A stretch of DNA of 64,000 nucleotides from a bacterium (GTDB lineage: Bacteria > RBG-13-61-14 > DATKZS01), in assembly GCA_035527835.1 (NCBI GenBank), contig DATKZS010000196.1:1058-65057 (forward strand), in the 5' to 3' direction. This document shows positions 1,071 to 26,664 of this stretch, one piece after another. Within the stretch, counting starts at the first letter, position 1. Each line of letters opens with the position of its first letter. A program made the position numbers and the translations under genes. The notes under the pieces were generated by a model, which searched no databases, was not told the origin of the DNA, and saw nothing but the letters and a program-made list of their open reading frames with translations.

Positions 1071-1093
1071 AATAATTTCTTCAATTTATGTAA

Positions 1094-2035: not shown

Positions 2036-2056
2036 CCCCGAGACAATGCTCTCCTG

Positions 2057-2685: not shown

Positions 2686-3338
2686 TGGCCAACGTCATCA
2701 TTTATTTTCATGACCCGACGGAGGGGGCGGCGCTCCGCCGGCCGGTGGGAGACGGGGTCAATTTCACCATGGCCCGGGGCTGGGACGACTTGAGCGGAAG
2801 GCTCTCCGAGGGCCGGCCCTGCGACCTCATCATCCTGGAGGGAGCGCCCACCGGGCTCAAGCCCGATCTGGCCCGCCGTATCAAGAAGATCAAGGACATC
2901 CCGGTCTTATTCTTCGAGGAAAAAAAGCCCGAGGCGGGTCCCTCCGCCGGCGCCGAGTGCCCGCCCCAGAGCGAGGTCTGGAAGGAGGCCGCCGCCCTCG
3001 CCTGTTCCGCCGACCCCATGGAAAAGGCCCGCCAGTTCATGGACGACAACTTCCGCGAGCAGCTCACCCTGGACCAGATCGCCGCCGTCGCCGGAATCTC
3101 CGCCAGCTACTTCTGCCGCCGCTTCAAGGGCAGGCTCGGGGAGTCGCCCATCACCTATCTCCGCAACCTCCGCATCGCCCGCGCCTCCTACCTGCTCGAG
3201 CACACCAGCCTCCAGCTCGCCGAGATCACCCAGCAGAGCGGGTTCTTCTCCGTCTCCTACTTCTGCCGCGAGTTCAAAAAGGCCATCGGCATCTCCCCCA
3301 TCCAGCACCGGAGGGAGAGCGGGAGAAAGAAGGTTTAG
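2686..3338 (+). CDS. AraC-family transcriptional regulator with degenerate N-terminal receiver-like domain
   Basis: C-terminal tandem HTH typical of AraC (LTLDQIAAVAGISASYFCRRFK ... QQSGFFSVSYFCREFKK). ATG at 2686 is preceded by GAGGGAGAAAG. The track ORF starts further upstream at an alternative start. Confidence 0.8.
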
Positions 3339-3510
3339 AGGTTCGAGGACTTGTCCACGGCGATGGCTGATAAATTGAAACGGCAACGGGGTTTAGAAAT
3401 TACGGCGCGCAAAAACTTCGGCAATGCAATCCGTCAACCCTGAACATCCTTAAATTTAATCTCTTGGCCCCGATGAGCCTCGGGTCTTAAACCTCAAACC
3501 AGTGCTGTCC

Positions 3511-3735
3511 AAAATAAACGGACCGGAGAACCGCCAAGACGCCAAGGATTATTTTTAAACACGATTTTAAGAGGGCTGGGGTGCGAATATTTCTTGCTTG
3601 GCGCTCCCGTCGGCCGGTTCGCCAAGCCGGTTGGGGCCAACGCTGCGGAGCTGTTCTTTGCCGGGCCGCCAAGAAACATCATGATTTACTTGGCGATTCC
3701 TGGCGCTCTTGGCGTCTTGGCGGTTTTCTTACGGC
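3511..3735 (+). mobile_element. MITE-like element, copy 2 (downstream of the AraC-family gene; shorter)
   Basis: Left end GGACCGGAGAACCGCCAAGACGCCAAG. Right end CTTGGCGCTCTTGGCGTCTTGGCGG. Shares an internal segment GGCGCTCCMGTCGGCCGGTTCGCCAAGC with copy 1. Confidence 0.6.
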
Positions 3736-3787
3736 CTATTTTGGACAAGAGTGACCTCAAACCCCAAACCTCAAACCTCACTCATCC

Positions 3788-4603
3788 TCACCGGCGCCGC
3801 GCGCCAGGCTTGCGCCGCGGCCGGGGCGCCGCGGCCGGGCCGGTGTCCTCGCCCAGGCCCGAGACCACATAGGTCCCGGACCGGCCGTCGCGGTAGAGCA
3901 TGATCAGACCCTGGTTCTCCGCGTCCTCCAACAGGCCGTTGAACATGCGGTAGCCGTAGTTGCCCTCGTCAAAGCTCGGGTCCTTGCGCTTCATCGTGTC
4001 CTTCACCATCGAGGCGTAGATCACCGGCTTGTTCTCACGCATCAAGGCCGTCACCGAATCCAAGAGCAGCCCGAAGACCTCCTTCTTGCCCTCCGGCAGC
4101 TTGCCAGAGCCGGCGCCCTGGTCCTTCACCACCGTCTTCAGGTCCTCGTAGTAAATGAACTCGTCGCAGTTGTCGCGCAAAAGCTCGGAGGTCGAGCCGC
4201 GCATCCCGAGACCGATCACGTATTTCCCGTTCTCCTTGAGCTTGCTCATCAGCGGCGAGAAGTCCGAGTCGCCGGACACGATGACAAAGGTGTCAATGTG
4301 CGCCTTGGCATAGGCCAGGTCAATGGCGTCCACCACCAGCCGGATGTCCGCCGAGTTCTTGCCCGTGATGTCGCGCTTGGGGATCTCGATCAGTTCGATC
4401 GCGGCCTCGTGCAGCTTCTGCTTGTAATCCGAGTACCGCACCCAGTCCGCGTAAGCCCGTTTCACGATGATCTTGCCCTTCTCAACCAGCCGCGCCAGAA
4501 CCCGCGTGATGTCGAACCGCCCGCCGCCTTGCTTGAACCCCAGCGCCAGGTTCTCGAAATCTATGAACACCGCCAGCCTTCGCTCTTGTTCTACTATTTG
4601 CAT
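3788..4603 (-). CDS. NYN-domain (LabA-like) protein with C-terminal OST-HTH/LOTUS domain
   Basis: 271 aa. N-terminal NYN/PIN-like motifs (VFIDFENL, IVSGDSDF). C-terminal LOTUS-like segment (GYRMFNGLLEDAENQGLI). Confidence 0.75.
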   Translation of the reverse strand: MQIVEQERRLAVFIDFENLALGFKQGGGRFDITRVLARLVEKGKIIVKRAYADWVRYSDYKQKLHEAAIELIEIPKRDITGKNSADIRLVVDAIDLAYAKAHIDTFVIVSGDSDFSPLMSKLKENGKYVIGLGMRGSTSELLRDNCDEFIYYEDLKTVVKDQGAGSGKLPEGKKEVFGLLLDSVTALMRENKPVIYASMVKDTMKRKDPSFDEGNYGYRMFNGLLEDAENQGLIMLYRDGRSGTYVVSGLGEDTGPAAAPRPRRKPGARRR

Positions 4604-4635
4604 GAATTAGGCTCCTTATTCTCCTGATTACCATA

Positions 4636-4738
4636 ACCGCTTATGCGGGTTTTTGGTTTGTAGTTTGTGGTTTGCGGTTAATGCCCGACAAGCCGGACTT
4701 GAATCGGAAACCACAAACCAAAAACCACAAACTACAAA
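4636..4738. repeat. long hairpin built from octamer repeats (GGTTTGNG)n/(CNCAAACC)n; likely terminator of the HIT gene
   Basis: GGTTTTTGGTTTGTAGTTTGTGGTTTGCGG ... CCACAAACCAAAAACCACAAACTACAAAC, a roughly 30-bp near-perfect inverted repeat. Confidence 0.75.
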
Positions 4739-5083
4739 CTATCCCAACCCATGAAGCGGCCTGCCCCCGATCAGGTGCAAATGCAAATGAAACACCACCT
4801 GGCCCGCTTCCCGGTTCGTGTTGATCACGCAGCGGTAGCCGTCATCCGCGACCCCCAGTTCCCGGGCCAGCCTGGCCGCCGCCGCGAACAGGTCGCCCAT
4901 CAAGTTCTGGTTCGACTCATTAATGCCGTTCACCGACTCAACGTGCTCGCGCGGCACGATCAGCACGTGCACCGGAGCAATGGGGTGGACGTCCTTGAAG
5001 GCCACCAGGACCCCGTCCTCGTAAACCGTCTCCGAGGGTATGGTCCCGGCGATGATCTTGCAGAACAGGCAGTCGTCCGGCAT
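4739..5083 (-). CDS. HIT-family (histidine triad) protein
   Basis: Histidine triad HLHLHLIG and LFCKII motif. Internal ATG at 5083 is preceded by an AGGGGGG Shine-Dalgarno. The track ORF extends 11 codons upstream. Confidence 0.85.
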   Translation of the reverse strand: MPDDCLFCKIIAGTIPSETVYEDGVLVAFKDVHPIAPVHVLIVPREHVESVNGINESNQNLMGDLFAAAARLARELGVADDGYRCVINTNREAGQVVFHLHLHLIGGRPLHGLG

Positions 5084-5260
5084 CGTTGGTTCCCCCCTTT
5101 TCGGGCCTCGATTCACCGTTTATTCTGGGGCCAAGGCGCTCTATTGTCAAATCCGAAGAAATGCGGTATTAATGGACTATATGATGTCGGCGCGGTATAA
5201 TCCGGCCGGACCCGGATGGCCCGGCCCATCATCCAACAGCGATTGAGAAAGGAACCCTGA

Positions 5261-5806
5261 ATGCGCGTCAAAGGAACACTGGTCCTGGATTACGTCCGCA
5301 TAATCCGCGCGAACCGCGGCCAGGACTGGTCCAAGTATCTGACCCCCGAGGACTGGCAAATCATTGACAGCCAGGTGCTGTCCTCGCAATGGTACCCCTA
5401 TGACTCTTTCCGCCGCATCGCCTTTGCCGTCTTCAAGGTGATCGCCAAGGGCAACCTGAAAACCGCCGAGACCTTCGGCCGCTTCACCGTCAAGAACATG
5501 CTCGGAGTGTACAAGAACATCCTCGTGCCCGGCGACCCCGCCGCCAGCATGGACAAGCTGGCCCGCCTCCGCCGCACCTTTTTCGAAGGCGAAATGGACA
5601 CCAAGATACTCGAGCACGGCAAGGGATGGCTCCGCTACGAGATCATCGTGTTCGCCCAGGAGGAAGACAACGAGCGCATCGAAGCCTTCTGCCACCAGGC
5701 CGCCGGAAACCTCATCGAGATCACGGAACAGTCCGGAGGCAAAAACATCAAGGCCGACATCTCCCTCAAATCCACGGGCGGAGAGATCAAGGTGAGCTGG
5801 GAATAA
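5261..5806 (+). CDS. hypothetical protein (possibly DUF2378/TIGR02265-like)
   Basis: 181-aa ORF with good codon usage and a GAAAGGAACCCTGA-ATG context. Family assignment is from memory only. Confidence 0.55.
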   Translation: MRVKGTLVLDYVRIIRANRGQDWSKYLTPEDWQIIDSQVLSSQWYPYDSFRRIAFAVFKVIAKGNLKTAETFGRFTVKNMLGVYKNILVPGDPAASMDKLARLRRTFFEGEMDTKILEHGKGWLRYEIIVFAQEEDNERIEAFCHQAAGNLIEITEQSGGKNIKADISLKSTGGEIKVSWE

Positions 5807-11035: not shown

Positions 11036-11527
11036 CGCCGTGTCCACTGCCGTCAAATCCAGGCCACGGAGCCCGTTTCCCCAAAAATTTTTACCCTGTT
11101 TCGTCACGGTGTCCAACAAAATCCGCGGCTTGCCCGCCAGGGCCCCATTTTCTGTGGCCCAAGGGCTGGGACGCGGAGGCACTTTCGCGGCCCAATTCCC
11201 AGGCCCCTGTGGCCTGCGGTCCGGGCCGCAAAAACGCCTCCGTGTCCTAACCATCAGGCCACCCGCGTCCTATAATCCAGGCCACGAAATGACGCACCGA
11301 AACCGGCCCTTAAATTTACTTTTTTGACCCAACCATTCATTTTTCGTAGAGCCATTCTCACCTCGGAAAAATAGTAGCAAGTAGCCAGTAGCCGGTAGCC
11401 AGGGCTCAAACCCCAAACCTCAAACCCCAAACCTCCCTCATGCCCCCCTACTATTCGCAAACTGGTCGCACCGAAAAGGAAAAAAAGTAATGGTCCAAGG
11501 AAAGGGAGTAGCCAGCAGCCAGGGAGA

Positions 11528-11625
11528 AGATAAAAAAGGCTTGAGGTTTGAGGTGTGAGGTTTGAGATTGGAGGCTTAAGATCGGGATGTTAACCACAAA
11601 CCCCAAACCCCAAACCTCAAACCTT
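11528..11625. repeat. octamer-repeat hairpin
   Basis: GGCTTGAGGTTTGAGGTGTGAGGTTTGAG ... AACCACAAACCCCAAACCCCAAACCTCAAACC. Confidence 0.7.
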
Positions 11626-11713
11626 TCTTCCCTCCTTCGTGCCCTTGGTGTCTTCGTGGTTCAATTCTCTTTCCTCAAACCTCAAACCCCAAACCTCAAA
11701 CCTCATTTTCCCC

Positions 11714-11741
11714 TTGACATCGAACCATGAAGGGATATACT
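11714..11741 (+). promoter_or_regulatory. promoter module copy P1 (TTGACA-N16-TATACT)
   Basis: Module CCCTTGACATCGAACCATGAAGGGATATACTGGACCGAGAATCGCGGGAAGG... No obvious downstream gene. Confidence 0.45.
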
Positions 11742-11934
11742 GGACCGAGAATCGCGGGAAGGAGAAGGAAAGGCCGGATGGTGAGCGGAAGAAAATATGA
11801 ACCACAAAGGCACAAAGAACACAAAGAAAAAAACATTCTTCCCCCTTCGTGCCCTTTGTGCCTTGGTGGTTAAATTCTTTCTCTTCCCTGGCTACCGGCT
11901 ACTTGCTACTGGCTACTTTTTCCCCACTTTTTGC

Positions 11935-11962
11935 TTGACATGGAAGCAGGAAGGGATATTCT
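11935..11962 (+). promoter_or_regulatory. promoter module copy P2 (TTGACA-N16-TATTCT)
   Basis: Long form of the module, extending to about 12090 with the conserved tail AATGTTAAATGTTAAGACCTGA. Confidence 0.4.
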
Positions 11963-12279
11963 GGCAGAGAGATTACGGGAGGGGATGGACAGGAAAGGCA
12001 GGATGGGGAATGGGACCGGAAAGCGGCGGGCGCGGGGAAGAATGATGAGGCTAATGTTAAATGTTAAGACCTGACCCCAATCACTTCGTGGTTCAATTCT
12101 CTTTCCTCAAACCTCAAACCTCAAACCTTTCTTCCCCCCTTCGTGCCCTTGGTGTCTTCGTGGTTCAATTCTCTTTCAACAAACCCCCAACCTTTCCTCC
12201 CGGGATATTGATGTCCCCGATCCCGTCCAACCCTTGATACCACAGGGTATCATGGTTGCGGATCATGGGACCATCGTCT

Positions 12280-12951
12280 TTATCCGCCCATGGCCTTGAC
12301 CGCTTCCACGGACCATTGCAGAGCGCCATCAAAGGCCTCGCGGGTCAGGTCCGCGCGCGAGAGGCTAAGGACCAGGGAATGGCTGGGAAGATAAAACATT
12401 ACGGAGATGATGGCCTTCGAGAGCAAGGGCAGGCCCTCACGCACCACCGGCAAGGACAAGCTTGAGTAGTCCTCTGAAACAGGATGGACCGCAAAGATAT
12501 AATTCCCAGCCAGCTCCGTACCGGCCAGTCCGGGAATCTGGGCCAGGTCCTCCTCCGGATCAATCTCATCGTCCTCCCGGCGCCGCTCCAGCTCGATGAT
12601 TTCTTCCCCGTCCGGGTCCTTCACCTCTCCCACGGTCAGATACCAACGCTTGGCCTTTTTGGGCAGGTATTCCAGGACGACCTTGCTCATCCCCGCGCGG
12701 CCTTCCATCCGCCTCTCCTGCGTCCCCTCCACCGGTTTTAAATCATACGCCGCCACGAGCTCGGCCCACAATGGATCGCCGCTGAACAGAACCTGAATCT
12801 TCTCCCGGATACCCATTTGGTTTCGGCCCTCCTTGATTTTTCCTCGCCAGGAATGCAACAACATCCCCTGACCAATGGCGCGGACAATCTTGTCCGCTGA
12901 CAACCTATTGTACATCGCGACCAAAATAACGCCGCCTCGGTGAAACCGCAA
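12280..12951 (-). CDS. hypothetical protein (acidic, no recognisable domain)
   Basis: 223-aa ORF, the only minus-strand ORF in the island. Start is uncertain; internal Met candidates exist. Confidence 0.4.
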   Translation of the reverse strand: MRFHRGGVILVAMYNRLSADKIVRAIGQGMLLHSWRGKIKEGRNQMGIREKIQVLFSGDPLWAELVAAYDLKPVEGTQERRMEGRAGMSKVVLEYLPKKAKRWYLTVGEVKDPDGEEIIELERRREDDEIDPEEDLAQIPGLAGTELAGNYIFAVHPVSEDYSSLSLPVVREGLPLLSKAIISVMFYLPSHSLVLSLSRADLTREAFDGALQWSVEAVKAMGG

Positions 12952-13015
12952 GCTGGAACGCAGTATCCAAACCTCCCCCTCCCCAAGCTGCCGGCTGCTT
13001 TTTTTCTTTTTCCGC

Positions 13016-13043
13016 TTGACATGGAATCAGGACGGGATAGACT
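13016..13043 (+). promoter_or_regulatory. promoter module copy P3 (TTGACA-N16-TAGACT) driving the DUF4258/YgiT pair
   Basis: Same module as at 11714, 11935, 13805 and 14047. 15 nt upstream of ATG 13058. Confidence 0.6.
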
Positions 13044-13057
13044 GGCAGGGGATTACG

Positions 13058-13360
13058 ATGACGATCAAGGAGATTCAAGATAAGATCAAGGCCGGCAGCC
13101 ACCGCTATTCGGACCATGCGGTGAAAAGAATGATTAAAAGGTCAATTGAGGACCATGAGGTTGAGCAGGCTGTTTTAACGGGAGAGATCATAGAAGAGTA
13201 CCCCCGCGATAAGTATTCTCCCAGCTGCCTGGTTTTCGGAACCACGGACAAGGGGAGGCCCTTGCACGTCCAGGTTTCATTTCCGCCCCAAGTTGTTATA
13301 ATAACCGTATATGAGCCGGATCAAGATGAATGGACGGATTATCGGGTCAGGAGGAGGTGA
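13058..13360 (+). CDS. DUF4258-family putative toxin
   Basis: Roughly 100-aa protein with a (S)DHAVKRM motif typical of DUF4258. ATG at 13058. The track start at 13016 is a TTG lying inside the promoter -35. Confidence 0.7.
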   Translation: MTIKEIQDKIKAGSHRYSDHAVKRMIKRSIEDHEVEQAVLTGEIIEEYPRDKYSPSCLVFGTTDKGRPLHVQVSFPPQVVIITVYEPDQDEWTDYRVRRR

Positions 13361-13366
13361 AGCAAC

Positions 13367-13609
13367 ATGAAATGCGTATTCTGCGGCGGCCAAACCAAAA
13401 GCCAAAAAGTGACCTTTGTTGATGACGAGCAAGGCAAATACCTGGCGGTCGAGAACGTACCCGCCCAGGTCTGCACCAGGTGCGGAGAAAAAACCTATGA
13501 CCCCGAAACCACCAGGCTCCTCCTCGACTACGCCCGCAACCGCCGCCACCCCGCCAAAACCTTTAACATGCCCGTCTTCGACTTCGAAAAACCCGGCGAC
13601 AGGCCATGA
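13367..13609 (+). CDS. YgiT-type zinc-finger (MqsA-like) putative antitoxin
   Basis: MKCVFCGG...CTRCGE zinc ribbon of the TIGR03831/YgiT type. Sits 6 nt downstream of the DUF4258 gene. Confidence 0.7.
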   Translation: MKCVFCGGQTKSQKVTFVDDEQGKYLAVENVPAQVCTRCGEKTYDPETTRLLLDYARNRRHPAKTFNMPVFDFEKPGDRP

Positions 13610-13635
13610 GCGGGCCTTAAGGAGTAGCCGGCAGC

Positions 13636-13800
13636 CAGTAGCCAGGGAAAAGCTTAAGACTTGAGGCTTGGGGCTTGAGGCTTGAACCACAAACCCCAAA
13701 CCTCAAACCACAGACCTTCCTTTCTTCCCTTCGTGCCTTCGTGGTTCAATTCCCCCTCTTCAACCACAAACCCCAAACCTCAAACCACAAACCTCATTTT
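13636..13800. repeat. octamer-repeat tracts (CTTGAGG/AAACCACAAACC) in the island
   Basis: Visible period-8 tandem arrays. Short ORFs in the track translate them as KPQTSNL-type peptides. Confidence 0.7.
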
Positions 13801-13804
13801 ATGC

Positions 13805-13832
13805 TTGACATCGAACCAGGAAGGGATATACT
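13805..13832 (+). promoter_or_regulatory. promoter module copy P4 (TTGACA-N16-TATACT)
   Basis: Short form of the module, nearly identical to P1 over about 100 nt. Confidence 0.45.
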
Positions 13833-14046
13833 GGACCGAGAATCGCGGGAAGGGATGGACGGGAAAGACGGGATGGGGAGCGGAAGAAAATATGAACCAC
13901 CATGCCACCAAGATCACGAAGAACAATAAATCATCCTTCTTCCCTTCGTTCCCTTGGACTTCGACGAGCTCAGTCGAGTCGTGCCTTCGTGGTTCAATTC
14001 TCTTTCTTCCAACCCCAAACCTCAAACCACAAACCTCATTTTTCCC

Positions 14047-14074
14047 TTGACATTGAACCCGGAAGGGATATACT
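14047..14074 (+). promoter_or_regulatory. promoter module copy P5 (TTGACA-N16-TATACT) upstream of the AT-rich orphan gene
   Basis: Near-consensus hexamers, followed by a purine-rich leader and then gene 14295. Confidence 0.55.
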
Positions 14075-14294
14075 GGCGGAGAAATTACGGGAGGGAATGG
14101 ACGGGAAAGGCGGGATGGGGAACGGGACCGGAAAGGGGAGCGCGGGGAGAAGAATGAGAAGGATAATGTTAAATGTTAAGACCTGATCCCAATCCCATGC
14201 CAATCCCCATGCCAATCCCCACCACCAATCCCCACCAACAGCCCCTTGAGACCAGAAGCCGCTTTTTCCAAATATAATTAGAGAGGGTAGGAAA

Positions 14295-15497
14295 ATGATG
14301 GCAAAGACTTACTCACCTACAGACATTTTTTTTGATCCATTAGTTGATAGAGATTATTATTACACCATCCTTCCTCTTCTTCCGTTACTATATGATCATA
14401 TTTATATTTATTATCCGAGTGACAATTGGGCCAAGGTTACAAATTACCTTTCTCCGACGACACGTATTAGCTACATTCAAAATCTGAGACATTGGATTAG
14501 CAAAGGAGTAATTATACCAGTCTTAAAAGGTGAATATCCATTGAAAGATGACATAAGAAAAAAGAGATCTGAAATGGATGGGCCTTCCGAAGAGTTTAAA
14601 AATGTTCTGAAAAAATATAGAAAGGACTATCAAGAATCTTTAATAACTCTTGATGTACAATCAACGCTAAGAGGGTATGATGAAGCTAGAAAACTAATTC
14701 AGGAAATTGGGAACGAAGAACAAATCATTAATATGATTAAGCTAGACCTTAATGAAGCTATTCCCGACCTTTTTTATTATTATGCCGGCGGACCAAGAGC
14801 AACCAGTTCTAAATTGCTCCTAGAGATAATCAGTGCATATAAAAATGACGATTGGATTAGAAAAGATAACGAGCTTGGAGAATATTTGCTTCCAAGCACT
14901 GCTGCATACCAATATCATGCCATTACAGATCTTGGTGAAAAAAAGAGAATAGAAGATATATATCATAATACTATTATTGTAAGAGCAGTTGATATTCTTG
15001 ATGAGAAACGACTCAGACGAGATATTTGTGAATGGCCTGAAAAAGATAATATTGAAACATGGCGTGAGTTGGGTCTTCACAGAATATTGAGAGTGTTCTT
15101 ACACTCACAGGCAATTTCAAATAATCCAGATGTACAAGCAAATGAACTAGAATACACAAGCATAGAGCTTGGCAATAGATTAACTAAACTTCGATCACAA
15201 CTTCCAGGTGAATTGGCATCTCTTTTAGTTGACAAAGGATTGTTATCGCAAATTATTATTTGCCTTACTGCGTCACTAGGCATTGTAATTGGTGATGCAA
15301 CATCAACAATTATTGGAGGCTTGGTAACTCTCTGTGTGGGCAATATAGGAAGCAAAGCTATTTTATTCAGCCTAAAGAGGATAAAATGGGATAAATTCAT
15401 TGATGCTATTGAAGATGTTTTAGGCTCCAAGTCAAATAGAACGTTGGAGAGCATTGCACTTGCCTTTGGAGATGTTATAGTCTTAGGAAGAGAGTAG
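14295..15497 (+). CDS. AT-rich orphan protein of unknown family; soluble 300-aa N-terminal region plus two C-terminal TM helices
   Basis: 400-aa uninterrupted ORF whose DNA is strikingly AT-rich relative to everything around it. Shine-Dalgarno GAGGG is 9 nt upstream. C-terminal hydrophobic segments LLSQIIICLTASLGIVIG and IIGGLVTLCVGNIG. Confidence 0.7.
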   Translation: MMAKTYSPTDIFFDPLVDRDYYYTILPLLPLLYDHIYIYYPSDNWAKVTNYLSPTTRISYIQNLRHWISKGVIIPVLKGEYPLKDDIRKKRSEMDGPSEEFKNVLKKYRKDYQESLITLDVQSTLRGYDEARKLIQEIGNEEQIINMIKLDLNEAIPDLFYYYAGGPRATSSKLLLEIISAYKNDDWIRKDNELGEYLLPSTAAYQYHAITDLGEKKRIEDIYHNTIIVRAVDILDEKRLRRDICEWPEKDNIETWRELGLHRILRVFLHSQAISNNPDVQANELEYTSIELGNRLTKLRSQLPGELASLLVDKGLLSQIIICLTASLGIVIGDATSTIIGGLVTLCVGNIGSKAILFSLKRIKWDKFIDAIEDVLGSKSNRTLESIALAFGDVIVLGRE

Positions 15498-15618
15498 AAA
15501 GAAATTATTTATGTTCATCCGGTTAAAGAGTACTTTTGCTGATGAAGATGAAGCAGTCTCATCTTAAAATATTCATTATCACGATATCCATAAGCCTGTC
15601 TTTTCAGTGGGGATTGGG

Positions 15619-15712
15619 GTCATCTATAAAAGTCCCAGTCAAGACAAATCTCTCTTTTCCTGAAGACAAATTTTCTTCATCTGGGAAGGGCTCCCCCCTC
15701 GCCATCGCCGCT
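15619..15712 (+). repeat. X module of the composite 3' block (copy 1)
   Basis: TCATCTATAAAAGTCCCAGTCAAGACAAATCT...CTGGGAAGGGCTCCCCCCTCGCCATCGCCGCTG. Second copy at 17991-18085. Confidence 0.75.
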
Positions 15713-15820
15713 GTGCGGGATCGGGATCGGGGGTCAGGTCTCGACATTAGACATTTGTTTACGTATTCAGGGTATGTTTAATCAACCCTTACCGGGTTGG
15801 GCGGTGGTGATGGGATTGTG

Positions 15821-15880
15821 TCCCAGGGTAGGCCGAAGACGGCCAACCCTGGGCTATTTTATGTTTGCCCTTTCAGGGAG
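15821..15880 (+). repeat. REP-like element, copy 1 (partial: central and right hairpins only)
   Basis: TCCCAGGGTAGGCCGAAGACGGCCAACCCTGGGCTATTTTATGTTTGCCCTTTCAGGG. Confidence 0.75.
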
Positions 15881-15980
15881 TAACAATAATGCCGCGGCCA
15901 GGGGATGCGAATTGTGTGGGTGGGGGTCAGACCCTTGTTTGACTGTTTAACGGGGCGGAATTTTTCAGCCGTCTTTATCT

Positions 15981-16080
15981 CGCCCTTTCAGGGCTGAAAA
16001 GGATATTTGGGGCGGCGATATCCCAGGGTAGGCCGGGGACGGCCAACCCTGGGCTATTTTATGTTTGCCCTTTAAGGGCG
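15981..16080 (+). repeat. REP-like triple-hairpin element, copy 2 (full)
   Basis: CGCCCTTTCAGGGC ... CCCAGGGTAGGCC-loop-GGCCAACCCTGGG ... GCCCTTTMAGGGCG. Lies 3' of gene 14295-15497. Confidence 0.8.
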
Positions 16081-16139
16081 TAACAATAATGCCGCGGCCA
16101 GGGGATGCGAATCGGGAGAGGTTGTGGCGGGCATCAAAG

Positions 16140-16345
16140 AAAGGTTTGTGGTTTGAGGTTTGTGGTTTGTGGTTGAAGAAAGGAGATTGAACCACGAAGG
16201 CACGAAGGTAGGAAAAGAGGTTTGTGGTTTGAGGTTTGTGGTTTGTGGTTTAATAGCCAAACCTCAGACCTCAGACCTCAAGCCTCACACCTCAAACCTC
16301 AATCCTCGCGCCCGGACCTCAAACCCCAAACCTCACACCTCAAAC
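16140..16345. repeat. octamer-repeat tract pair (GGTTTGWGG arms then CCTCAAACC arms)
   Basis: Tandem 8-mers on one strand followed by their complement. Part of composite block I. Confidence 0.75.
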
Positions 16346-16440
16346 CTCATCTCCCTTGATTCATGATGCTTGATCGGGCATAGTTGGGCCATGTGGAGAA
16401 CAGGTTTGTGGTTTGGGGTTTGCGGTTTGTGGTTGAATAA

Positions 16441-17970
16441 ATGAAGATTCGGGATCAGGGCCGGGAATTGGAACGACAAACCACAAACGACAAACTTCGC
16501 GTTGGCCGGGGAGGTGCGGGGATGAAGGAACGGAGATTATGCGTTTTCATCAGCGGCGTGATTGTGGGAGCGGCTTTAGGCGTTGGGCTGGGGTGTCTTC
16601 GTCTGAAGAGCGTGGAGGCGGTGGTTCGGGAGCCGGAGGTCCCCGGGGAGTCACGGCTTGCCTATACCCCGCCTCCGGAGCCGAAGTTTTCCGCGGAGTT
16701 TGCGGCCAAGTACATGCCGGTGCTGCTGAGCATGATACAGCCTCAAATCGAAAAGGTGACGGATGATATTTACGTTGCCATGGGATACGCCATGGGCAAC
16801 GTGACCATGGTGATCACTGACGAGGGCCTGGTGATCATTGACACGACGGAGAGCGAGGACTCGGCGCGGAGGATCATGGCGGACTTCCGCAAGATCACGG
16901 AGAAGCCGGTGCGCTATATCATCTACACCCATTTTCATCCGGACCATAACCAGGGGACCCGGGCTTTTTATTCGGAGGGGGTCGAGATTATCGCGACCAG
17001 GGAATTTTTGAACTGGATCCACGGCGCCAATCCCGGACTGGGCGACCAACATTTTCGGCGCGTTCTGGACATACTGGGAGGGGCCGCGGAGCCGGAGTAT
17101 GCCTTCTCCATGCCTTTTTCCAGCCCCTACCTGAGCGCGGGAAAGGCGCCCGAGGCCATGATGCCGACCATTACCTTTGACGAGCAGTATTCTTTCAGCC
17201 TGGGCGGCAAGCGGTTCGATCTTTTCCACACGCGGGGGGAGACCGAAGACCATTTGGCGGTCTGGATGCCCGAGGAGCGGGCCTTGCACGTCGGAGACCT
17301 TTATTATCATTCCTTCCCCAACCTGGCGGGCATCATGCTGGAGGCCCGGCCGGTCCGCGGCTGGATGGCGTCGCTGTCGCGCTTCATCGCGCTTGGGCCG
17401 GAGTACCTCATCCTCGGCCACACCAAACCTCTTAAAGGCCAAAGCCATATCCAGGAGCACCTGGAGAACTATCTGGCCGCCATCCAGTACGTGCACGATG
17501 AGACTCTCCGATACATCAACAACGGCAAAAGCGTCGAAGAGGCGGTGGCCGGGATCAATCTTCCCGACAGCCTTGCCCGGCTGCCGTATCTGCAGGGGCT
17601 TTACGGCAGGGTGGACTGGTCGGTCCGGGACATCTACCACGCTTATGCCGGGTGGTACGACGGCTGGGGCGCCGGGCTCAATCCCCTGCCCGGGAAGTTC
17701 CGGGCCCGGGAGATCGTCGCGCTGGCCGGAGGAGCCGATAAAATCCTTTCCCGCGCCATCGCGCTCCAAAAGAACGGTGAATATCAGCTCTCCGCGGAAC
17801 TGTGCGACGTCGTCATCGCGGCCAACCCCCAAGACAAGCTGGCCCACACCGTCATGGCCTACGACATGCAATACCTCGCCTTCAGCTCCGACAACCTGCT
17901 CTGCATCGGCGCCTATCTGTCGGCGTACTCCATGCACATGAAGGCCGCAAAAACGGGCGCGGGAACGTGA
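16441..17970 (+). CDS. MBL-fold metallo-hydrolase, alkyl/aryl-sulfatase (SdsA1/BDS1)-like, N-terminal membrane anchor
   Basis: THFHPDH zinc motif, IIDT, and a downstream dimerisation-like region. The start may be the internal MKERRLCVF at 16522. Confidence 0.75.
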   Translation: MKIRDQGRELERQTTNDKLRVGRGGAGMKERRLCVFISGVIVGAALGVGLGCLRLKSVEAVVREPEVPGESRLAYTPPPEPKFSAEFAAKYMPVLLSMIQPQIEKVTDDIYVAMGYAMGNVTMVITDEGLVIIDTTESEDSARRIMADFRKITEKPVRYIIYTHFHPDHNQGTRAFYSEGVEIIATREFLNWIHGANPGLGDQHFRRVLDILGGAAEPEYAFSMPFSSPYLSAGKAPEAMMPTITFDEQYSFSLGGKRFDLFHTRGETEDHLAVWMPEERALHVGDLYYHSFPNLAGIMLEARPVRGWMASLSRFIALGPEYLILGHTKPLKGQSHIQEHLENYLAAIQYVHDETLRYINNGKSVEEAVAGINLPDSLARLPYLQGLYGRVDWSVRDIYHAYAGWYDGWGAGLNPLPGKFRAREIVALAGGADKILSRAIALQKNGEYQLSAELCDVVIAANPQDKLAHTVMAYDMQYLAFSSDNLLCIGAYLSAYSMHMKAAKTGAGT

Positions 17971-17990
17971 ATCAGGGATCGGGAATCGGG

Positions 17991-18085
17991 ATCATCTATA
18001 AAAGTCCCAGTCAAGACAAATCTTTCTTTTCCTGAAGACAAATTTTCTTCGTCTGGGAAGGGCTCCCCCCTCGCCATCGCCGCTG
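17991..18085 (+). repeat. X module of the composite 3' block (copy 2)
   Basis: About 95% identical to 15619-15712. Confidence 0.75.
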
Positions 18086-18230
18086 AAGCTTGGCGGCCCC
18101 GAGATTTCTTGCCTCGGCCGGTTCGCGCCGGGGATGGGGGATGGGGGTCAGACCCTTGTTTGACGGGGGATGGGGGTCAGACCCTTGTTTGACTGTTTAA
18201 CGGGGCGGAATTTTTCAGCCGTCTTTGTTT

Positions 18231-18330
18231 CGCCCTTTCAGGGCTGAAAAGGATATTGGGGGCGGCGATATCCCAGGGTAGGCCGCAGACGTCCAACCCT
18301 GGGCTATCTTATTTTTGCCCTTTCAGGGCG
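18231..18330 (+). repeat. REP-like triple-hairpin element, copy 3
   Basis: Near-identical to 15981-16080. Lies 3' of gene 16441-17970. Confidence 0.8.
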
Positions 18331-18546
18331 GAAGCAGGATAGCCCGCATAGCTTGCTATGGGGGTGGCCGGGGCCACGGGATGCGATTGCGGAGTCATTA
18401 TGGCGGGCATCAAAGAAAGGTTTGTGGTTTGAGGTTTGTGGTTTGTGGTTAAATACTCAAACTTCAGAGTGGGACAGCCCACATAGCGAGCTATGTGGGG
18501 TATCCGGTGGAGGGAATTTTTTTCGATGATGCGGCGGCGGTTCGGC

Positions 18547-18629
18547 CGTCCCGCCGGGACTTGATGGTTTTTTTCCGCCTGGTCCCCAGGAAAGAATTCC
18601 TGGGCTAATTTCAAGCCGTCCCGCCGGGA
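18547..18629. repeat. GTCCC-CGGGAC palindromic element, copy 1
   Basis: GTCCCGCCGGGAC ... CCCAGGAAAGAATTCCTGGG ... GTCCCGCCGGGAC. Confidence 0.7.
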
Positions 18630-18738
18630 CTAAAGGCCTCAAGACGGAAGGAGTAGCGGGTAGCGCGCAGCCAGGGAATACGAAGCTCCAAACCACAAAC
18701 CTCAAACCCCAAACCTCAAACCTCAACGCCTGCTGGTC

Positions 18739-18820: not shown

Positions 18821-19024
18821 ATGACCAATAGCGATGCCACGGCCGAGGTTTTTATCACGGCGCTGAAAGCCTTGCCCAAGACCGAGCGCGACGCGGTCCT
18901 GGTGCGCATCGCCCGGGACAAGGAATTCGCCCGCGACCTCCTCGACCTCGCCGTCATCTCCTCCCGCGGCCACGAACCCTCCCGTCCCTTCCGCGAATAC
19001 CTGGCGGCCAAAAGAAAAAAATGA
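18821..19024 (+). CDS. putative type II antitoxin (partner of RelE/ParE)
   Basis: 67 aa. Overlaps the downstream toxin by 4 nt (ATGA). Preceded by a consensus promoter and a GGAGG Shine-Dalgarno. Confidence 0.55.
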   Translation: MTNSDATAEVFITALKALPKTERDAVLVRIARDKEFARDLLDLAVISSRGHEPSRPFREYLAAKRKK

Positions 19025-19275
19025 ACGCCAAGCGCGCCTACGCCGTCAGCATCAAGCGCTCGGCGGAAAAGGAAATGGACCGCCTGCCCGCGGACATCTT
19101 CGACCGCATCGCCTCCGCAATCCTTGACCTCGAAACCAATCCCCGCCCTCCCGGATGTAAAAAGCTCCGGGGCATCGAAGAATACCGCCTCCGGGTCGGG
19201 CCGTATCGAGTCCTCTATACCATTGACGATCCCGGGAAAAAGGTATTCATCATATCGGTGGGCCATCGCCGGTAA
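19021..19275 (+). CDS. RelE/ParE-family toxin
   Basis: 84 aa. YRVLYTID...KVFIISVGHRR C-terminus characteristic of RelE/ParE. Confidence 0.8.
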   Translation: MNAKRAYAVSIKRSAEKEMDRLPADIFDRIASAILDLETNPRPPGCKKLRGIEEYRLRVGPYRVLYTIDDPGKKVFIISVGHRR

Positions 19276-19356: not shown

Positions 19357-20817
19357 TTACTCGATGCTTGCGGCCATGACTCGATAGACGAGCGCGATGC
19401 GTCCGTCGCGGTTGAAGGCTCGGAGGAAGAGGTAGGTTAGCCTGAATTTGCCTTGTGGGGTCGTGACCACGGTGTCGCGGTTTTTTGCTGACTTCAGGAA
19501 TCCGAAGCGCTGCCAGTCCACCTGCGAGATGTTGAGCCACACGATCAAGCCCACGTCATGCGTGAGCACCTGCTCCAACACAAAACGGTCCGGGTCATCG
19601 CCTGGCTTGATTTCTCCCCAAGTGTAGGCCTCCCGGCCGGTGGTGTACTTGAAGATCAGCGGGTTCTGCCCCAGCACCGCTTCTTCGCCGGGAACTTGGC
19701 GCAGCGACTTCGCGGCCTCCAGGATCGGGTCCCCCGGCAGCGCGGCCAGTCCGTAAAGATAAAGGCCGCTGACCGCCAGCAGCGGGACCAGCACGCCCGC
19801 CGCCGCGGCCGTCTTCATCCGCGGCTCCCGCTCCGGCCGGCGCGACGCGTCCCATTTCACGAAGCGGTCCAGGCCCAGCGCCGCCGGCGCGAGCACCGCC
19901 GGCATCAGCGCCAGCAGGAACCGGTCCTGGTACCACCACCAGATGACGTGCAGGCCCGTGTAGAGCGCGGCGAACCCGGCGAGGTAAATGAGCCACTTAC
20001 GTTGGAGCCGGGCCAGGCCCAGGGCCGCGGCGGCCAGGGCCACCGGCCCGAAGTCCTTGACCAGGCCCAGGCCGATCTCGGCCAGGTGGAGATGTAACAC
20101 CACCAACTCCAGCCAATAGGAGGTCCTGCTCAGCGTTCCGTAGGTCAAAAGGTTCCGGATCAGCCACGGCGACGCCGCCAGCGCCGTTCCCGCGAGCCCC
20201 TTGATCACGGCGCGTCCGCTGCCGAGGTTGGCGATCACGAACACCAGGACCAGCAGGTAACCCTCGTACCTGGTGATCATGGCAAGCCCCAGCATGAGCC
20301 CCGCCGTAAAAAAGCGCTCCGTGCTCAGCAGCCAGTAAGACAGCAACAGCAGCAGCGTGAAGATGGGCATCACGTTCACGTCCCGGTACTGGTCCCAGCC
20401 CACCGCCATCAGCGCCAGCGCCGCCGCCGCCGTCAGCGCCGCCCAGCGCGAGGCCTGGAGGCGCCGCGCCAGCAGGAACAGGAGCGGAGGCAACATGGCC
20501 CCGCAGCCGACGCTGACCGCCTGCCCCCATTTCTCCACCCCGATCGCGCCGCCCGCCGCCAGGTTGAATAACGCCATCAGGAACGGATAAAACGGCAGGA
20601 ACTTGGCGTACGGCTCTCCCATAACCACGTACCCGCCGCGAAACAGGTTCTCGGCAAGCTCGATGTAAGTAAAACCGTCCGGCGTGACCACGCGGAAAAA
20701 CCAGGCGAGCGCGCCATAGCCCAGCAACCCCGCGCCCAGCAGGATCATCGCGATGCCGCGGTCAGAAGCGGCGTCCCGGCTGTCCGTGCAAATGTTCAGC
20801 AGCTCGTTCCCCCTCAA
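19357..20817 (-). CDS. GT39/GT83-like (PMT/ArnT family) membrane glycosyltransferase
   Basis: DGFTYIELAENL DE-motif in the first periplasmic loop. At least 10 TM helices. The start may be the internal MILLGAGLL. Confidence 0.7.
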   Translation of the reverse strand: MRGNELLNICTDSRDAASDRGIAMILLGAGLLGYGALAWFFRVVTPDGFTYIELAENLFRGGYVVMGEPYAKFLPFYPFLMALFNLAAGGAIGVEKWGQAVSVGCGAMLPPLLFLLARRLQASRWAALTAAAALALMAVGWDQYRDVNVMPIFTLLLLLSYWLLSTERFFTAGLMLGLAMITRYEGYLLVLVFVIANLGSGRAVIKGLAGTALAASPWLIRNLLTYGTLSRTSYWLELVVLHLHLAEIGLGLVKDFGPVALAAAALGLARLQRKWLIYLAGFAALYTGLHVIWWWYQDRFLLALMPAVLAPAALGLDRFVKWDASRRPEREPRMKTAAAAGVLVPLLAVSGLYLYGLAALPGDPILEAAKSLRQVPGEEAVLGQNPLIFKYTTGREAYTWGEIKPGDDPDRFVLEQVLTHDVGLIVWLNISQVDWQRFGFLKSAKNRDTVVTTPQGKFRLTYLFLRAFNRDGRIALVYRVMAASIE

Positions 20818-23302: not shown

Positions 23303-23431
23303 TAATAAAAACGGGCAATGGCATCTGAGATCAAACAAGGGAAGGCTTATTAATTCCGAAAAACTATAATGTTGCAGGCACGCGGCCCAGGTTTTCAACC
23401 TGTGCCCTCCCCAAACCTCAAACCCCAAACC

Positions 23432-24022
23432 TCAAACCTTTTCCGCGCACGGAATGCAGAGCACCTTGCCTTTCACTTTCCTCGTCCGCGTGTCCATCAC
23501 CGGCTCGCCGCAGGAGGCGCAGATCAGGCTCTGGTGGATCTCGGCCTCGGCGGGGAGCGTGATCCTCACGTTCTTGATGTTGAAGAGGTCATCGTCCTTG
23601 GCGGTGAGGAGCATTTTCACGCGGTCCTCGCGGCTGGGCGCGGGCCTGGCGAACACGTCCGGCCGGAGCGCCACCCGCACCGCTTTTCCGCCGGGCCTTT
23701 TCGCGAACGTGAACACCTGCTTGCCGTAGTCGCGGAAAAACAGGTTGCCCTTGCCGAAGGTCGCGCCCGTCAAGAACTGCACCGCGTCCACGGCACAGGA
23801 GTTGTTCTCCACGATGGCAATCAGCTCCTCGTCGCCCGACCGCCTCCCCCGGAGCCTCTTCATCCCCGCCTTCGCCGCCCGATAGCCGATCAGGAGCCCG
23901 GGGCAGAGGTGGCCGTGGAAGGAAACAACACCACTCAACTCTCTATTTAATTTCAACTCCTTTTTGCGGCTGTTTCTTGTCGTCATTAGGATCATACCTC
24001 CATTCTGCATGCTGGATTCCAC
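23432..24022 (-). CDS. FmdE/FwdE-family protein with C-terminal zinc ribbon
   Basis: FHGHLCPGLLIGYRA motif of PF02663. C-terminal CxxC...CxxC. Confidence 0.75.
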   Translation of the reverse strand: MESSMQNGGMILMTTRNSRKKELKLNRELSGVVSFHGHLCPGLLIGYRAAKAGMKRLRGRRSGDEELIAIVENNSCAVDAVQFLTGATFGKGNLFFRDYGKQVFTFAKRPGGKAVRVALRPDVFARPAPSREDRVKMLLTAKDDDLFNIKNVRITLPAEAEIHQSLICASCGEPVMDTRTRKVKGKVLCIPCAEKV

Positions 24023-24116: not shown

Positions 24117-25865
24117 CTATTCCGATTGTTCCGGCCTCGGTATGATTTTAAATCCATCAAGCGTCATCCAGGTTTTCCGTTCCGCTTCCCGGTAGATGCT
24201 TTCCGCATCCTGATGGATGAAATCCTCCCGGAAAGGCCAGGATTGAACCTCCGCAGTGCCATCTTCGATGACGTACGAAAAAATGATGGACTTGCCATCG
24301 GAAGAAAAAAACGCCCTGGTTAATTGATAATGACGTTCGACCGGGCCGGCCCAGATATTATCCCAGAAAAAGCTCATGAGCGGCGACCAATCGCTGGTTT
24401 GCCAAAGATGAGCCACATCCTTCTGGAGAAGAAAATACTTGCCGTTAGGACTAAATGAAATGTCGTAGCCGGGCGTGTCTCCTATATTAATACTTAATTC
24501 GAGCTCTTTTGACTCGGTATTCCAGACCCGGAGCGCCGCCTGGTGGCAACCGCTATTATTAGGATCATATTCATCGCATCCCGAGGCCACAATGAATTTT
24601 CCATCGGGAGTAAATTGGAATGGGCCGACATAGCCTGCGAAGGATCTGATATTCCCGATGGTGCTCCCGTCCTGAGCCGAAAAAATGTCAATGGTGCCAT
24701 CATGTCCACTGGCAATATACCTTCCCTCCGGGGAGAAGACCACTCTGTTCGCCGTATAACGGAATCCCTGATTATTGAATTGTCTTAGTCTCTGGCCGGT
24801 TTCCACATTCCAAAGCTGGAAGAAATCACCTCCACAACTGAGGGCACGACTCCCGGTTGGAGAAAATATCAGCCTATAGATTTTCGCGCCCTTTCCGTCA
24901 CCGTTAAAGGTTTTAAGGACTTTGCCGGAATTCATGTCCCATAGTTTCAACCTAGTCTTGGTGCAATTCTCATTTTTATCCTGGCCATTGCATTCCGCGG
25001 AAATGCCGATTTTTCCGTCAGGCGAAATGGCGGCCGAGGTAATGGACCCGTCGCTGAATTCGATCGTCCGTTCTTTTTTAAATGAATCCAGGTTCCAGAC
25101 CGTTATTTCTTCAGGCCGCAAGGAAACGCCTCGTTTGCCGTCGGAGGAGAAAACAAAGCCAGGATAAATTATTCCCCTGTCTTCCTTGGGCGCGATCGTG
25201 ATCGTCTTATCCTTTTCGCCCAGCTTGCGGACATAGATGGTCCAATACTGGCTGCTACTGAAGAACTTGCCGTCGAGAGAAATATTCGAGACATGGGCAT
25301 CAACTCCCTCTTCTAAAAAGACTTGATCTCCTTTATTGAACAGATAGTTATCATCCTGCAGATAATACAGGTAGGTCTTTGCCTCTTGCCGGCCCAGGAT
25401 GAGGGATTGGGCAAAGTAGAGTCTGGAAGCGCCCAGATAATCAAATGACGAGGCGCTTCTTGCCATTGCCAACGCAAGCCTGCCCAGTTGCAGGTAGGCC
25501 TCGGCCTGCTGCTCTTTGGGCTTTCGCGCGATCTGCTCGGCCAGATCAAGCCGCGCCAGGGCTTCATCCCTTTCTCTTTCGGCCTTTCCTTTTTCTCCCT
25601 GGGCTTCTCTGGCCGCATCAAATTTTTCCGCCGCCCGCTGGTTGGCGTAGGCAATTTCAAACCGTTGGTGAGAAATTATCTTCCTTGACTCTTCCACTTG
25701 GCTGCATGCGAAACATATTTCGCTATGCCTCATCATGCTGAGCCGCAGAAAAAGGAAAATAGAAAGTGCGAGGACCAGCACGAGAGCCAGGATGAAGGCC
25801 CGACTCCATCTGACTCTCGGCGGCTTTTTTCGATTCTCCGATCCTGGGTTCCGGCTTGCAGTCAT
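24117..25865 (-). CDS. membrane-anchored WD40/beta-propeller repeat protein
   Basis: N-terminal TM segment (AFILALVLVLALSIFLF). Coiled and TPR-like linker. Multiple WD-like repeats (SPDGK, SPTGSR, SPEGRYIASGHDG, TPDGKF, SPNGKY). Confidence 0.75.
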   Translation of the reverse strand: MTASRNPGSENRKKPPRVRWSRAFILALVLVLALSIFLFLRLSMMRHSEICFACSQVEESRKIISHQRFEIAYANQRAAEKFDAAREAQGEKGKAERERDEALARLDLAEQIARKPKEQQAEAYLQLGRLALAMARSASSFDYLGASRLYFAQSLILGRQEAKTYLYYLQDDNYLFNKGDQVFLEEGVDAHVSNISLDGKFFSSSQYWTIYVRKLGEKDKTITIAPKEDRGIIYPGFVFSSDGKRGVSLRPEEITVWNLDSFKKERTIEFSDGSITSAAISPDGKIGISAECNGQDKNENCTKTRLKLWDMNSGKVLKTFNGDGKGAKIYRLIFSPTGSRALSCGGDFFQLWNVETGQRLRQFNNQGFRYTANRVVFSPEGRYIASGHDGTIDIFSAQDGSTIGNIRSFAGYVGPFQFTPDGKFIVASGCDEYDPNNSGCHQAALRVWNTESKELELSINIGDTPGYDISFSPNGKYFLLQKDVAHLWQTSDWSPLMSFFWDNIWAGPVERHYQLTRAFFSSDGKSIIFSYVIEDGTAEVQSWPFREDFIHQDAESIYREAERKTWMTLDGFKIIPRPEQSE

Positions 25866-25959: not shown

Positions 25960-26328
25960 TCAGAGCTTTGCAGCCAAATTCCTTTCTCGGTGCCTTGTCT
26001 CTTCAACCACCACGATGGTCCCCTTCTCCAGGGCGGACGTGGAATCCTTCAGGACTTTGCGGAGTCGCTCGATCACGTGTTCACTCCTGCAGTCATGAAG
26101 CCTGAAAATGACGACACTCACGAGACGACCACCAGAGAGGGAGATTATCTCCCCGAAATCGAGGTCAAAGGTCAGCAGGACCCTTTTTTCGGAAAAGGCC
26201 TTCTCGAATATGGCGCCGTTGGGGAGACGCTGCAGGTTTTCATCCCGGAGGTGGACAGCGTCGTGCCCTTCGGCGCGGAGATACTGCATCACGCGTTGTG
26301 ACACGCCCATGTCGGCAAGGAATCGCAT
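25960..26328 (-). CDS. DUF5615-family PIN-like putative toxin
   Basis: MRFLADMGVS...LLTFDLDFGE pattern. Lies immediately downstream of a DUF433 gene. Confidence 0.7.
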   Translation of the reverse strand: MRFLADMGVSQRVMQYLRAEGHDAVHLRDENLQRLPNGAIFEKAFSEKRVLLTFDLDFGEIISLSGGRLVSVVIFRLHDCRSEHVIERLRKVLKDSTSALEKGTIVVVEETRHRERNLAAKL

Positions 26329-26556: not shown

Positions 26557-26664
26557 GACTTTTGCCTCCTCTGGTTATGTTAGCATATGAGAGCACCAAT
26601 CTATAAATAGAGCTAACTCCGTCCCTTCTTAACCTCAAACCCCAAACCTCAAACCACAAACCTC

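Follow-up and report, generated by a model that had tools for sequence, protein, structure and literature searches.

The stretch of DNA analysed here (the window) spans 64 kb of a bacterial contig, DATKZS010000196.1, and contains at positions 14295–15497 of the forward strand an intact open reading frame (ORF) for a 400-amino-acid protein. We call this protein X and use the same name for its family, with L004–L022 denoting the loci or contigs that carry relatives. The coding sequence, taken from the ORF list, starts at an ATG (a second ATG, at 14298, would give a 399-amino-acid version), and its product is identical to the NCBI 'hypothetical protein' HUT55484.1, the sole family member with an NCBI source, whose record is titled 'MAG TPA: hypothetical protein [bacterium]'. 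A purine-rich stretch read from the sequence, agagagggtagg at 14280–14291 (+), lies 3–14 nt before the ATG and resembles a Shine–Dalgarno site, a function that it may well have.

X sits between groES–groEL and trkA–trkH, in a spacer rich in repeats and in toxin–antitoxin (TA) modules. The gene order within this spacer is a TA pair of DUF4258 and MqsA-like genes (13016–13609), X, a gene for a hydrolase of metallo-β-lactamase (MBL) fold that resembles alkyl sulfatases (16441–17970), and a second TA pair of an antitoxin and ParE (18821–19275). An earlier reading of the letters alone, made without database searches (the sequence-only reading), had described X as an AT-rich orphan flanked by TA modules and had proposed it as a single-gene phage-defence effector; the flanking modules are as it described them. 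They lie 0.7 kb and 3.3 kb from X and are complete pairs of their own, and the X operon lacks the small cognate partner of a type II TA system.

A recently acquired gene among host repeats

Several measures set X apart from its surroundings. The gene has a GC content of 0.352 and a GC content at third codon positions (GC3) of 0.264, in a window of 62% GC in which ten neighbour genes have GC3 values of 0.61–0.90. The lowest-GC 1,203-nt stretch of the entire 64 kb is the X gene itself (z = −5.4 against 51 non-overlapping windows), and its codon adaptation index, with the neighbours as reference, is 0.24 versus 0.49–0.83. Windowed GC and codon adaptation thus confirm the contrast between AT-rich coding DNA and GC-rich neighbours that had been noticed by eye, and the DNA run quoted as an example is present. 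Homolog genes, at 44–59% GC, are close in composition to their own contigs, which makes the low GC of X the signature of a donor rather than a trait of the family. The protein is skewed in the same direction: residues with AT-rich codons (FYMINK) make up 31% of X versus 17–27% of its homologs, and residues with GC-rich codons (GARP) make up 20% versus 23–30%. This amino-acid content, together with the composition of the gene, implies a long evolution in a low-GC genome and a recent arrival. X was recently acquired by its high-GC host from a low-GC donor, and the earlier call of recent horizontal acquisition was correct.

Fine-scale GC analysis delimits the foreign tract to about 1.35 kb (~14262–15606), comprising X as its sole gene, flanked by about 30 nt on its 5′ side and about 110 nt on its 3′ side. 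Host repeats can be followed up to ~14194 before the tract and again from ~15607 after it. Within this tract, which is bounded by host repeat blocks, there is no integrase, transposase or terminal repeat; hallmarks of a transposon, insertion sequence, integron cassette or prophage are likewise absent within it and at its bounds, and no tRNA was found in the window. A mobile element as the carrier of X was rejected on these grounds.

The promoter that the sequence-only reading placed about 220 nt upstream of X is a real site but not a gene-specific one. A promoter scan recovers TTGACA-N16-TATACT at 14047–14074 (+), matching at 11 of 12 positions, and places it 221 nt upstream of the ATG. The site falls within a 31-nt repeat (14046–14076) that occurs five times against 0 expected, always on the forward strand (the other copies are at 11713–11743, 11934–11964, 13015–13045 and 13804–13834) and carrying a near-consensus sigma-70-like promoter, TTGACA-N16-TATACT or variants. 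Because of these five copies, the promoter-like site is a host repeat that was not imported with X. One copy directly precedes the DUF4258 operon, and the repeat may, as a portable promoter, be a source of X transcription.

A small family with a soluble domain and a glycine-rich hairpin

X is not an orphan, as first supposed, but belongs to a small, conserved and so far undescribed family, for which some 20 sequences were found among some 15 billion. A phmmer search of 1.84 billion cluster representatives returned 13 matches, all with E ≤ 5e-15 and with the twilight zone empty; a word-indexed search of 5.8 billion sequences returned four; and a profile search of that 5.8-billion collection with the family alignment returned no further distant relatives. 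A scan of metagenome contigs contributed one extra fragment (L007). No relatives were found among PLSDB plasmids, INPHARED phages or IMG/VR, and none by two pattern scans of 185,579 species-representative genomes (GTDB), which used specific peptide and DNA patterns that could miss divergent copies. The representative of the host species in GTDB is either without the X gene or absent. Peptides of 44–48 amino acids (P0040–P0042, on up to 27 contigs) that share the 90% cluster of the window protein were rejected as a clustering artefact: they are unrelated, glycogen-synthase-like C-terminal peptides.

Full-length members are 35–50% identical to one another in a star-like pattern and match window X with E values of 1e-62 to 1e-100. 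They share homology over their full length, the motifs FFDPW, YYPSD, NDDWIR, LGEYLLP, WRxLGLH and FGDVxVxG, and a C-terminal hairpin. Synonymous sites are saturated among them (proportion of synonymous differences, pS, ~0.8; of non-synonymous differences, pN, ~0.4), leaving a single close pair, P0003/P0004, for which the ratio of non-synonymous to synonymous substitution rates (dN/dS) is usable, at 0.6. About 70 columns of the alignment are invariant, including D14, S42/D43, D95, R126, E177, N184-D185-D186, E196 and H262. Some copies are frameshifted: those of L021 (4898–6098) and L022 (593–1793) near residue 170, with the same break in JGI and Logan assemblies, and that of L018 (687–1932) near residue 115. 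The frameshifts reflect either decay of these copies or recurrent slippage.

The soluble N-terminal region (residues 7–275; 14313–15119, +) is predicted to comprise a Rossmann-like α/β core and a helical subdomain. In an AlphaFold2 model built from a 15-sequence alignment, with a predicted template modelling score of 0.74, residues 7–220 have a predicted local distance difference test score (pLDDT) of 80–94 and form a β-α-β Rossmann-like core followed by helices; residues 276–400 fall below a pLDDT of 50. Core strands are predicted at residues 10–13, 35–39, 73–78 and 117–119. The family motifs of this region are FFDPW, YYPSD, GxYP, DGP, TxRGR, NDDWIR, LGEYLLP, AYQYRAL and WRxLGLHxxLRxFL. In the model, FFDPW, YYPSD, GxYP and TxRGR would follow strands 1, 2, 3 and 4, respectively, at the strand C termini that serve as ligand-binding positions in Rossmann-like proteins.

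The sequence-only reading could assign the N-terminal region to no family, and this held across profile and fold searches. No model in the Pfam, NCBIfam, PADLOC or PHROGs profile libraries matches X. Pfam searches with all 15 family members at E ≤ 10 gave only sub-threshold glycine-zipper noise, and the family profile found only one insignificant match among PDB sequences, of the hydrophobic region to a transmembrane (TM) segment of a CBS-hemolysin (E 0.87). No SLOG- or LSDAT-type domain is recognizable in X by profile or fold. The nearest folds, all weak, are those of cyclodipeptide synthases, of reductase domains of non-ribosomal peptide synthetases and of nucleotidyltransferases, which have Rossmann-like cores; cyclodipeptide synthases and other Rossmann-like (HUP-type) enzymes are to this extent candidates for its closest known counterparts. 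As searches of Pfam, NCBIfam, PADLOC, PHROGs and the PDB detected no relative of the domain, characterizing it would define a new domain family.

The sole hydrophobic stretch of X spans residues 305–361, with a Kyte–Doolittle 19-residue maximum of 2.06. Hydropathy and alignment place within it a glycine-rich hairpin (residues 315–358; 15237–15368, +) that is predicted to insert into a membrane. Its two short hydrophobic segments flank a loop that varies in length and alone takes indels, and the hydrophobicity and glycine pattern of the hairpin are conserved in 7–8 of the 8 full-length members. Both of the C-terminal peptides that the earlier reading had quoted as hydrophobic helices are present in the sequence, and the analysis supports a membrane-type hairpin at the C terminus. 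Across the family, the second segment follows a small-xxx-small or GxxxGxxxGxxxGxxG pattern, and 4 of the 15 members have sub-threshold matches to Gly-zipper_YMGG/Omp (E 0.06–0.12). With its GxxxGxxxGxxxG second segment and its two short segments connected by a turn, X is like the glycine-zipper hairpins of Pfam (Gly-zipper_YMGG, Gly-zipper_Omp, 'glycine zipper 2TM'), but its matches to these families stay below threshold, and their members are small and mostly exported proteins or lipoproteins, whereas X lacks a signal peptide and includes a 300-amino-acid, presumably cytoplasmic domain. Alignments and the model give the remaining C-terminal tail (residues 359–400; 15369–15494, +) a basic KRIKWDK stretch, two predicted helices and the conserved end FGDVxVxG. 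Basic residues after the second segment (by the positive-inside rule) and the absence of a signal peptide suggest an N-in, C-in hairpin, which would leave the tail in the cytoplasm.

NUDIX coupling and a possible membrane effector

Nine contigs have a gene for a NUDIX hydrolase directly upstream of X on the same strand. Five of them (L005, L006, L007, L009 and L017) were reached from X and four (L019–L022) from the NUDIX side. One of the partners, a NUDIX protein with a Zn-ribbon, has 24 close relatives, and the contigs fetched for two of these all carry X immediately downstream (4 of 4, L019–L022): the L019 copy of X is intact, that of L020 runs off the end of its contig, and those of L021 and L022 are frameshifted behind an intact NUDIX gene. 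At 6 of the 8 readable junctions the stop and start codons overlap (ATGA, TGATG or TAATG), from which we infer translational coupling of the two genes; the gaps at the other two are 5 nt (L017) and 12 nt (L009).

The partners are of two unrelated types. The Zn-ribbon type best matches the NAD+ diphosphatase NudC and the other type best matches the ADP-sugar hydrolases NudE/AdpP, in each case below the curated cut-off, so that the best matches of both are ADP-X hydrolases (X here in its chemical sense). The displacement of one NUDIX enzyme by a non-orthologous one upstream of X favours a functional over an inherited link between the two genes. The NUDIX partners also match PADLOC candidate PDC-S07, a single-gene NUDIX candidate, with E values of 2e-10 to 3e-5; the match, at 22–38 bits, covers the generic NUDIX domain only, and PDC-S07 differs further in being a single-gene candidate without a described X-like partner, while X itself matches nothing in PADLOC.

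When loci found through NUDIX are excluded, 4 of 10 lineages have the partner. X stands alone in the window and in L004, L008, L010, L011–L016 and L018. No relative of the partner NUDIX proteins is encoded in the window (tblastn, E > 0.2), where only host repeats lie upstream of X. The window copy is the solo form of a family whose usual form is an operon of NUDIX followed by X. This comparison does not support the idea of a single-gene system: the commonest arrangement in the family is the coupled two-gene operon, which the window lacks.

Beyond the NUDIX linkage, the neighbourhoods of the homologs, which the sequence-only reading had proposed to check, are in several cases defence or mobile islands. 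In L019 and L020, a full-length PADLOC candidate, PDC-S14 (342 bits), is directly upstream of the module. L011–L016 have a PDC-S11 fragment, a giant WD40 protein, transposases and an integrase/Prim-Pol element; L018 has an integrase directly upstream of X; L010 has transposases on both sides of X; and L017 has a weak Mrr-like gene nearby. L021 carries a PDC-S62 fragment and two weak TIR-like genes. The latter are adjacent (1722–3680), contain sub-threshold TIR-like domains (TIR_2, E 1e-4 and 3e-3; ThsB, E 1e-4) and lie 0.7–2.7 kb upstream of the NUDIX gene, with an opposite-strand gene in between. TIR enzymes produce ADP-ribose-type signals, which makes these genes a lead for the ligand of X. 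No signal-making enzyme (CD-NTase, cyclase, TIR or mCpol) was found in the X operon, either in the window or directly beside the homologs.

A different partner for window X had been suggested in the adjacent MBL-fold hydrolase, with which it would form a two-gene system. The two genes are neighbours on the same strand, and the MBL protein begins with what may be a membrane anchor or signal-like segment. Its gene, however, is host-like in composition (GC 0.60, GC3 0.77), so it was not acquired together with X; host repeats of about 940 nt lie between it and X, and the same repeat block also follows the MBL gene; and the MBL protein has no PADLOC match. Because the other family loci lack an MBL gene and that of the window has host composition, we rejected joint action of the two as very improbable.

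From these observations we arrive at a reading of X as the nucleotide-controlled membrane effector of a conflict system, which we favour with rather less than even confidence. The C-terminal glycine-zipper hairpin would hold X in the inner membrane, and its cytoplasmic Rossmann-like domain would bind or process a nucleoside-diphosphate-X compound, similar to ADP-ribose or NAD. Upon a trigger, the hairpins would assemble, damage the membrane and bring growth to a halt in the cell under infection or invasion. In operons that have it, NUDIX would hydrolyse that nucleotide and thereby set a threshold or keep X off. A further and more doubtful step is that NUDIX and X constitute an undescribed two-gene conflict or anti-phage system, in which NUDIX polices an ADP-ribose- or NAD-type nucleotide that gates an effector of a new kind, with a novel Rossmann-like sensor or enzyme domain joined to a pore-forming glycine-zipper hairpin. 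Within such a two-gene system, the window would tentatively be a case of transfer of the effector by itself, with its gene staying intact in a high-GC host that is only distantly related.

Such a design has parallels among known systems. CARF–TM and 2TM effectors occur in CBASS, Pycsar and type III CRISPR systems. Like these effectors and OptE of Panoptes, X appears to combine a soluble cytoplasmic domain with a short TM module; the NUDIX–X pair resembles Panoptes-type systems in being a two-gene operon with a nucleotide enzyme, located in defence or mobile islands; and inner-membrane damage would be the expected outcome for X as well. In Panoptes, the product of OptS is a cyclic dinucleotide to which the TM effector OptE binds through its soluble domain; an enzyme controlling the nucleotide pool thus holds the effector in check (PMC12657218). 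We regard Panoptes as the closest analogue in logic, a likeness of design only. X has no sequence or fold similarity to the TM effectors of Panoptes, CBASS, Pycsar or CRISPR; its partner is a hydrolase and not a nucleotide synthase, with no cyclase, CD-NTase or mCpol nearby; and its soluble domain is N-terminal, about 300 amino acids long and matches no assigned fold.

ADP-ribose-linked membrane logic is also found in prokaryotic proteins that join SLOG/LSDAT domains to TM segments and in the Macro–TM effectors of type II Thoeris. TRPM channels, in turn, begin with a melastatin (SLOG-type) domain and end with a NUDIX domain of the NUDT9-homology type (PMC13143021). The X unit is like all of these in bringing together a Rossmann-like domain, a putative membrane module and an ADP-ribose-type NUDIX, again as a resemblance in design only.

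The gene singled out by the sequence-only reading is a real and above-chance observation, and its defence call is plausible. What favours a phage-defence or abortive-infection effector is association, in the form of homologs found near PDC-S14, PDC-S11 and PDC-S62, TIR-like genes, integrases and transposases; but no known defence model matches X, for which reason an abortive-infection effector is so far a candidate role. Further points weigh against a nucleotide-controlled conflict effector. PADLOC-DB v2.0.0, which includes Abi families and PDC candidates, contains no match at E ≤ 1 to window X or to the X of L019. The N-terminal domain is assigned to no known fold, and nucleotide binding is suggested only by the NUDIX partner and the Rossmann-like topology. 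The hairpin segments are short, at about 16–18 residues, and in some members of no more than moderate hydrophobicity, with maximum hydropathies of 1.47–2.08 and pLDDT values below 50. NUDIX is missing from about half of the lineages, the window among them, and is therefore not an obligatory antidote; several copies of X (L018 and L021/L022) carry frameshifts. Two of the solo loci, L004 beside ComEC and PolB and L008 after larE-larC-x-larB, are not island-like, and most family contigs are so short that a statistic for island enrichment is out of reach.

The L008 locus provides a second, different link of X to NAD-type nucleotides. Here, larE, larC, an unknown 240-amino-acid gene and larB are followed 72 nt on by X on the same strand (429–5349). 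The larE, larC and larB genes direct the synthesis of the nickel-pincer cofactor from nicotinic acid adenine dinucleotide (NaAD).

That one homolog follows these NaAD-using genes and another lies beside ComEC and PolB would also be expected if X were a membrane-anchored accessory enzyme of nucleotide, cofactor or envelope metabolism, with a catalytic site made up of the many invariant acidic and aromatic residues in its N-terminal domain, the hairpin merely an anchor, NUDIX removing or supplying an NDP-X intermediate and no role in conflict. The invariant residues listed above resemble a catalytic site more than a passive sensor, and the folds that come closest to the domain, though weakly, belong to enzymes with Rossmann-like cores. 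An accessory enzyme is harder to reconcile with the extreme rarity and the patchy, star-like distribution of the family, down to its absence in the GTDB pattern scans, with its repeated adjacency to integrases, transposases, TA modules and PADLOC candidates, and with the lack of any conserved metabolic neighbour besides NUDIX. We consider such an enzyme unlikely, though by no means negligible.

The translationally coupled two-gene layout, the placement among other TA modules and mobile elements and the frameshifted X genes behind intact NUDIX genes in L021 and L022 could alternatively reflect a selfish TA-like addiction module without benefit against phages, in which X would be a membrane toxin and NUDIX its enzymatic antidote; the window copy would then be a tolerated orphan toxin, silent or attenuated. 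We find this improbable, as intact solo X genes in at least five lineages (window, L004, L008, L010 and L011–L016) are difficult to accommodate with an obligatory antidote, and X, at 400 amino acids with a large conserved soluble domain, is unlike small membrane toxins.

Whatever the family does elsewhere, window X might be functionless passenger DNA, silent or decaying. Its composition is unameliorated and its codon fit very poor, the usual NUDIX partner is missing, the 1.35-kb tract has neither a mobility gene nor a dedicated regulator, and other copies in the family are frameshifted. On the other hand, the frame is open over 400 codons of AT-rich DNA, where stops arise easily; three other assemblies, each derived from another sample, carry the locus at 99.8–100% identity and the protein unchanged; and a strong promoter-like element and the Shine–Dalgarno-like site lie upstream. 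We accordingly give a mere passenger little credence.

If a nucleotide-controlled effector under NUDIX control is what X turns out to be, bacterial immunity would gain both an effector family and a type of control not seen before, the pairing of a signal-degrading NUDIX with a membrane effector, reminiscent in concept of Panoptes and of TRPM2 channels, which ADP-ribose gates. The object of interest in this respect is the NUDIX-coupled operon and not the partner-less copy of the window. Given its extreme rarity, the ecological weight of the family is probably small.

Host repeats and neighbouring genes

The block 3′ of X, which the sequence-only reading described as containing repetitive extragenic palindromic (REP) elements, is confirmed as repeat DNA but is a host block that also follows the MBL gene. 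Repeat families and pairwise alignment place it at 15609–16180, at the downstream edge of the insert and outside the gene. It holds Acido-Lenti-1-like hairpins and GGTTTGN heptamer arrays, and about 500 nt of it are duplicated after the MBL gene at 17981–18453 (84–95% identity, with indels), which leaves the MBL gene bracketed by direct repeats.

GGTTTGN arrays (complement CAAACCN) fill 11400–18730 and recur at 3753–3777, 4648–4740, 23407–23438 and 26631–26662, and an 18-nt pattern made for them matches 61 times in the window, where 0.02 matches are expected. The heptamers, a hairpin-like unit ('CTTCGTGGTTCAATTC') and the promoter-like unit form composite intergenic repeats, 0.7–1.3 kb in length, between all the small genes of the groEL–trkA spacer, which may be a hotspot for gene insertion.

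Two genes of host composition in this region are without a match in Pfam, NCBIfam or PADLOC: one at 12280–12951 (−), of 223 amino acids (178 in public assemblies), and one at 19357–20817 (−) for a 486-amino-acid polytopic membrane protein, upstream of trkA. The listed TTG start of the DUF4258 ORF (13016–13360) falls inside the promoter-like repeat, and the true start is probably the ATG at 13058, which gives 100 amino acids and keeps the full DUF4258 match. A second, milder low-GC patch (~0.47–0.50 versus 0.62) coincides with a 582-amino-acid, membrane-anchored WD40 β-propeller gene at 24117–25865 (−). At 25960–26328 (−), a few kilobases from the spacer around X, is another TA-type gene, for a DUF5615/Mut7-C PIN-like toxin (E 1e-24).

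An Rfam scan of the X flanks gave sub-threshold, Acido-Lenti-1-like repeat hairpins and spurious miRNA-like matches on the heptamer arrays. Elsewhere in the window, the Acido-Lenti-1 RNA motif exceeds its gathering score (37) at 45480–45525 (+) and 27980–28026 (−), with 41.5 and 41.3 bits, respectively, a hint that the host may be an Acidobacteriota- or Lentisphaerota-like bacterium. Sub-threshold copies are at 18585–18631, 18272–18330 and 15822–15866, several of them inside repeat blocks, and the Acido-Lenti-1 'RNA' may itself be a repeat hairpin.

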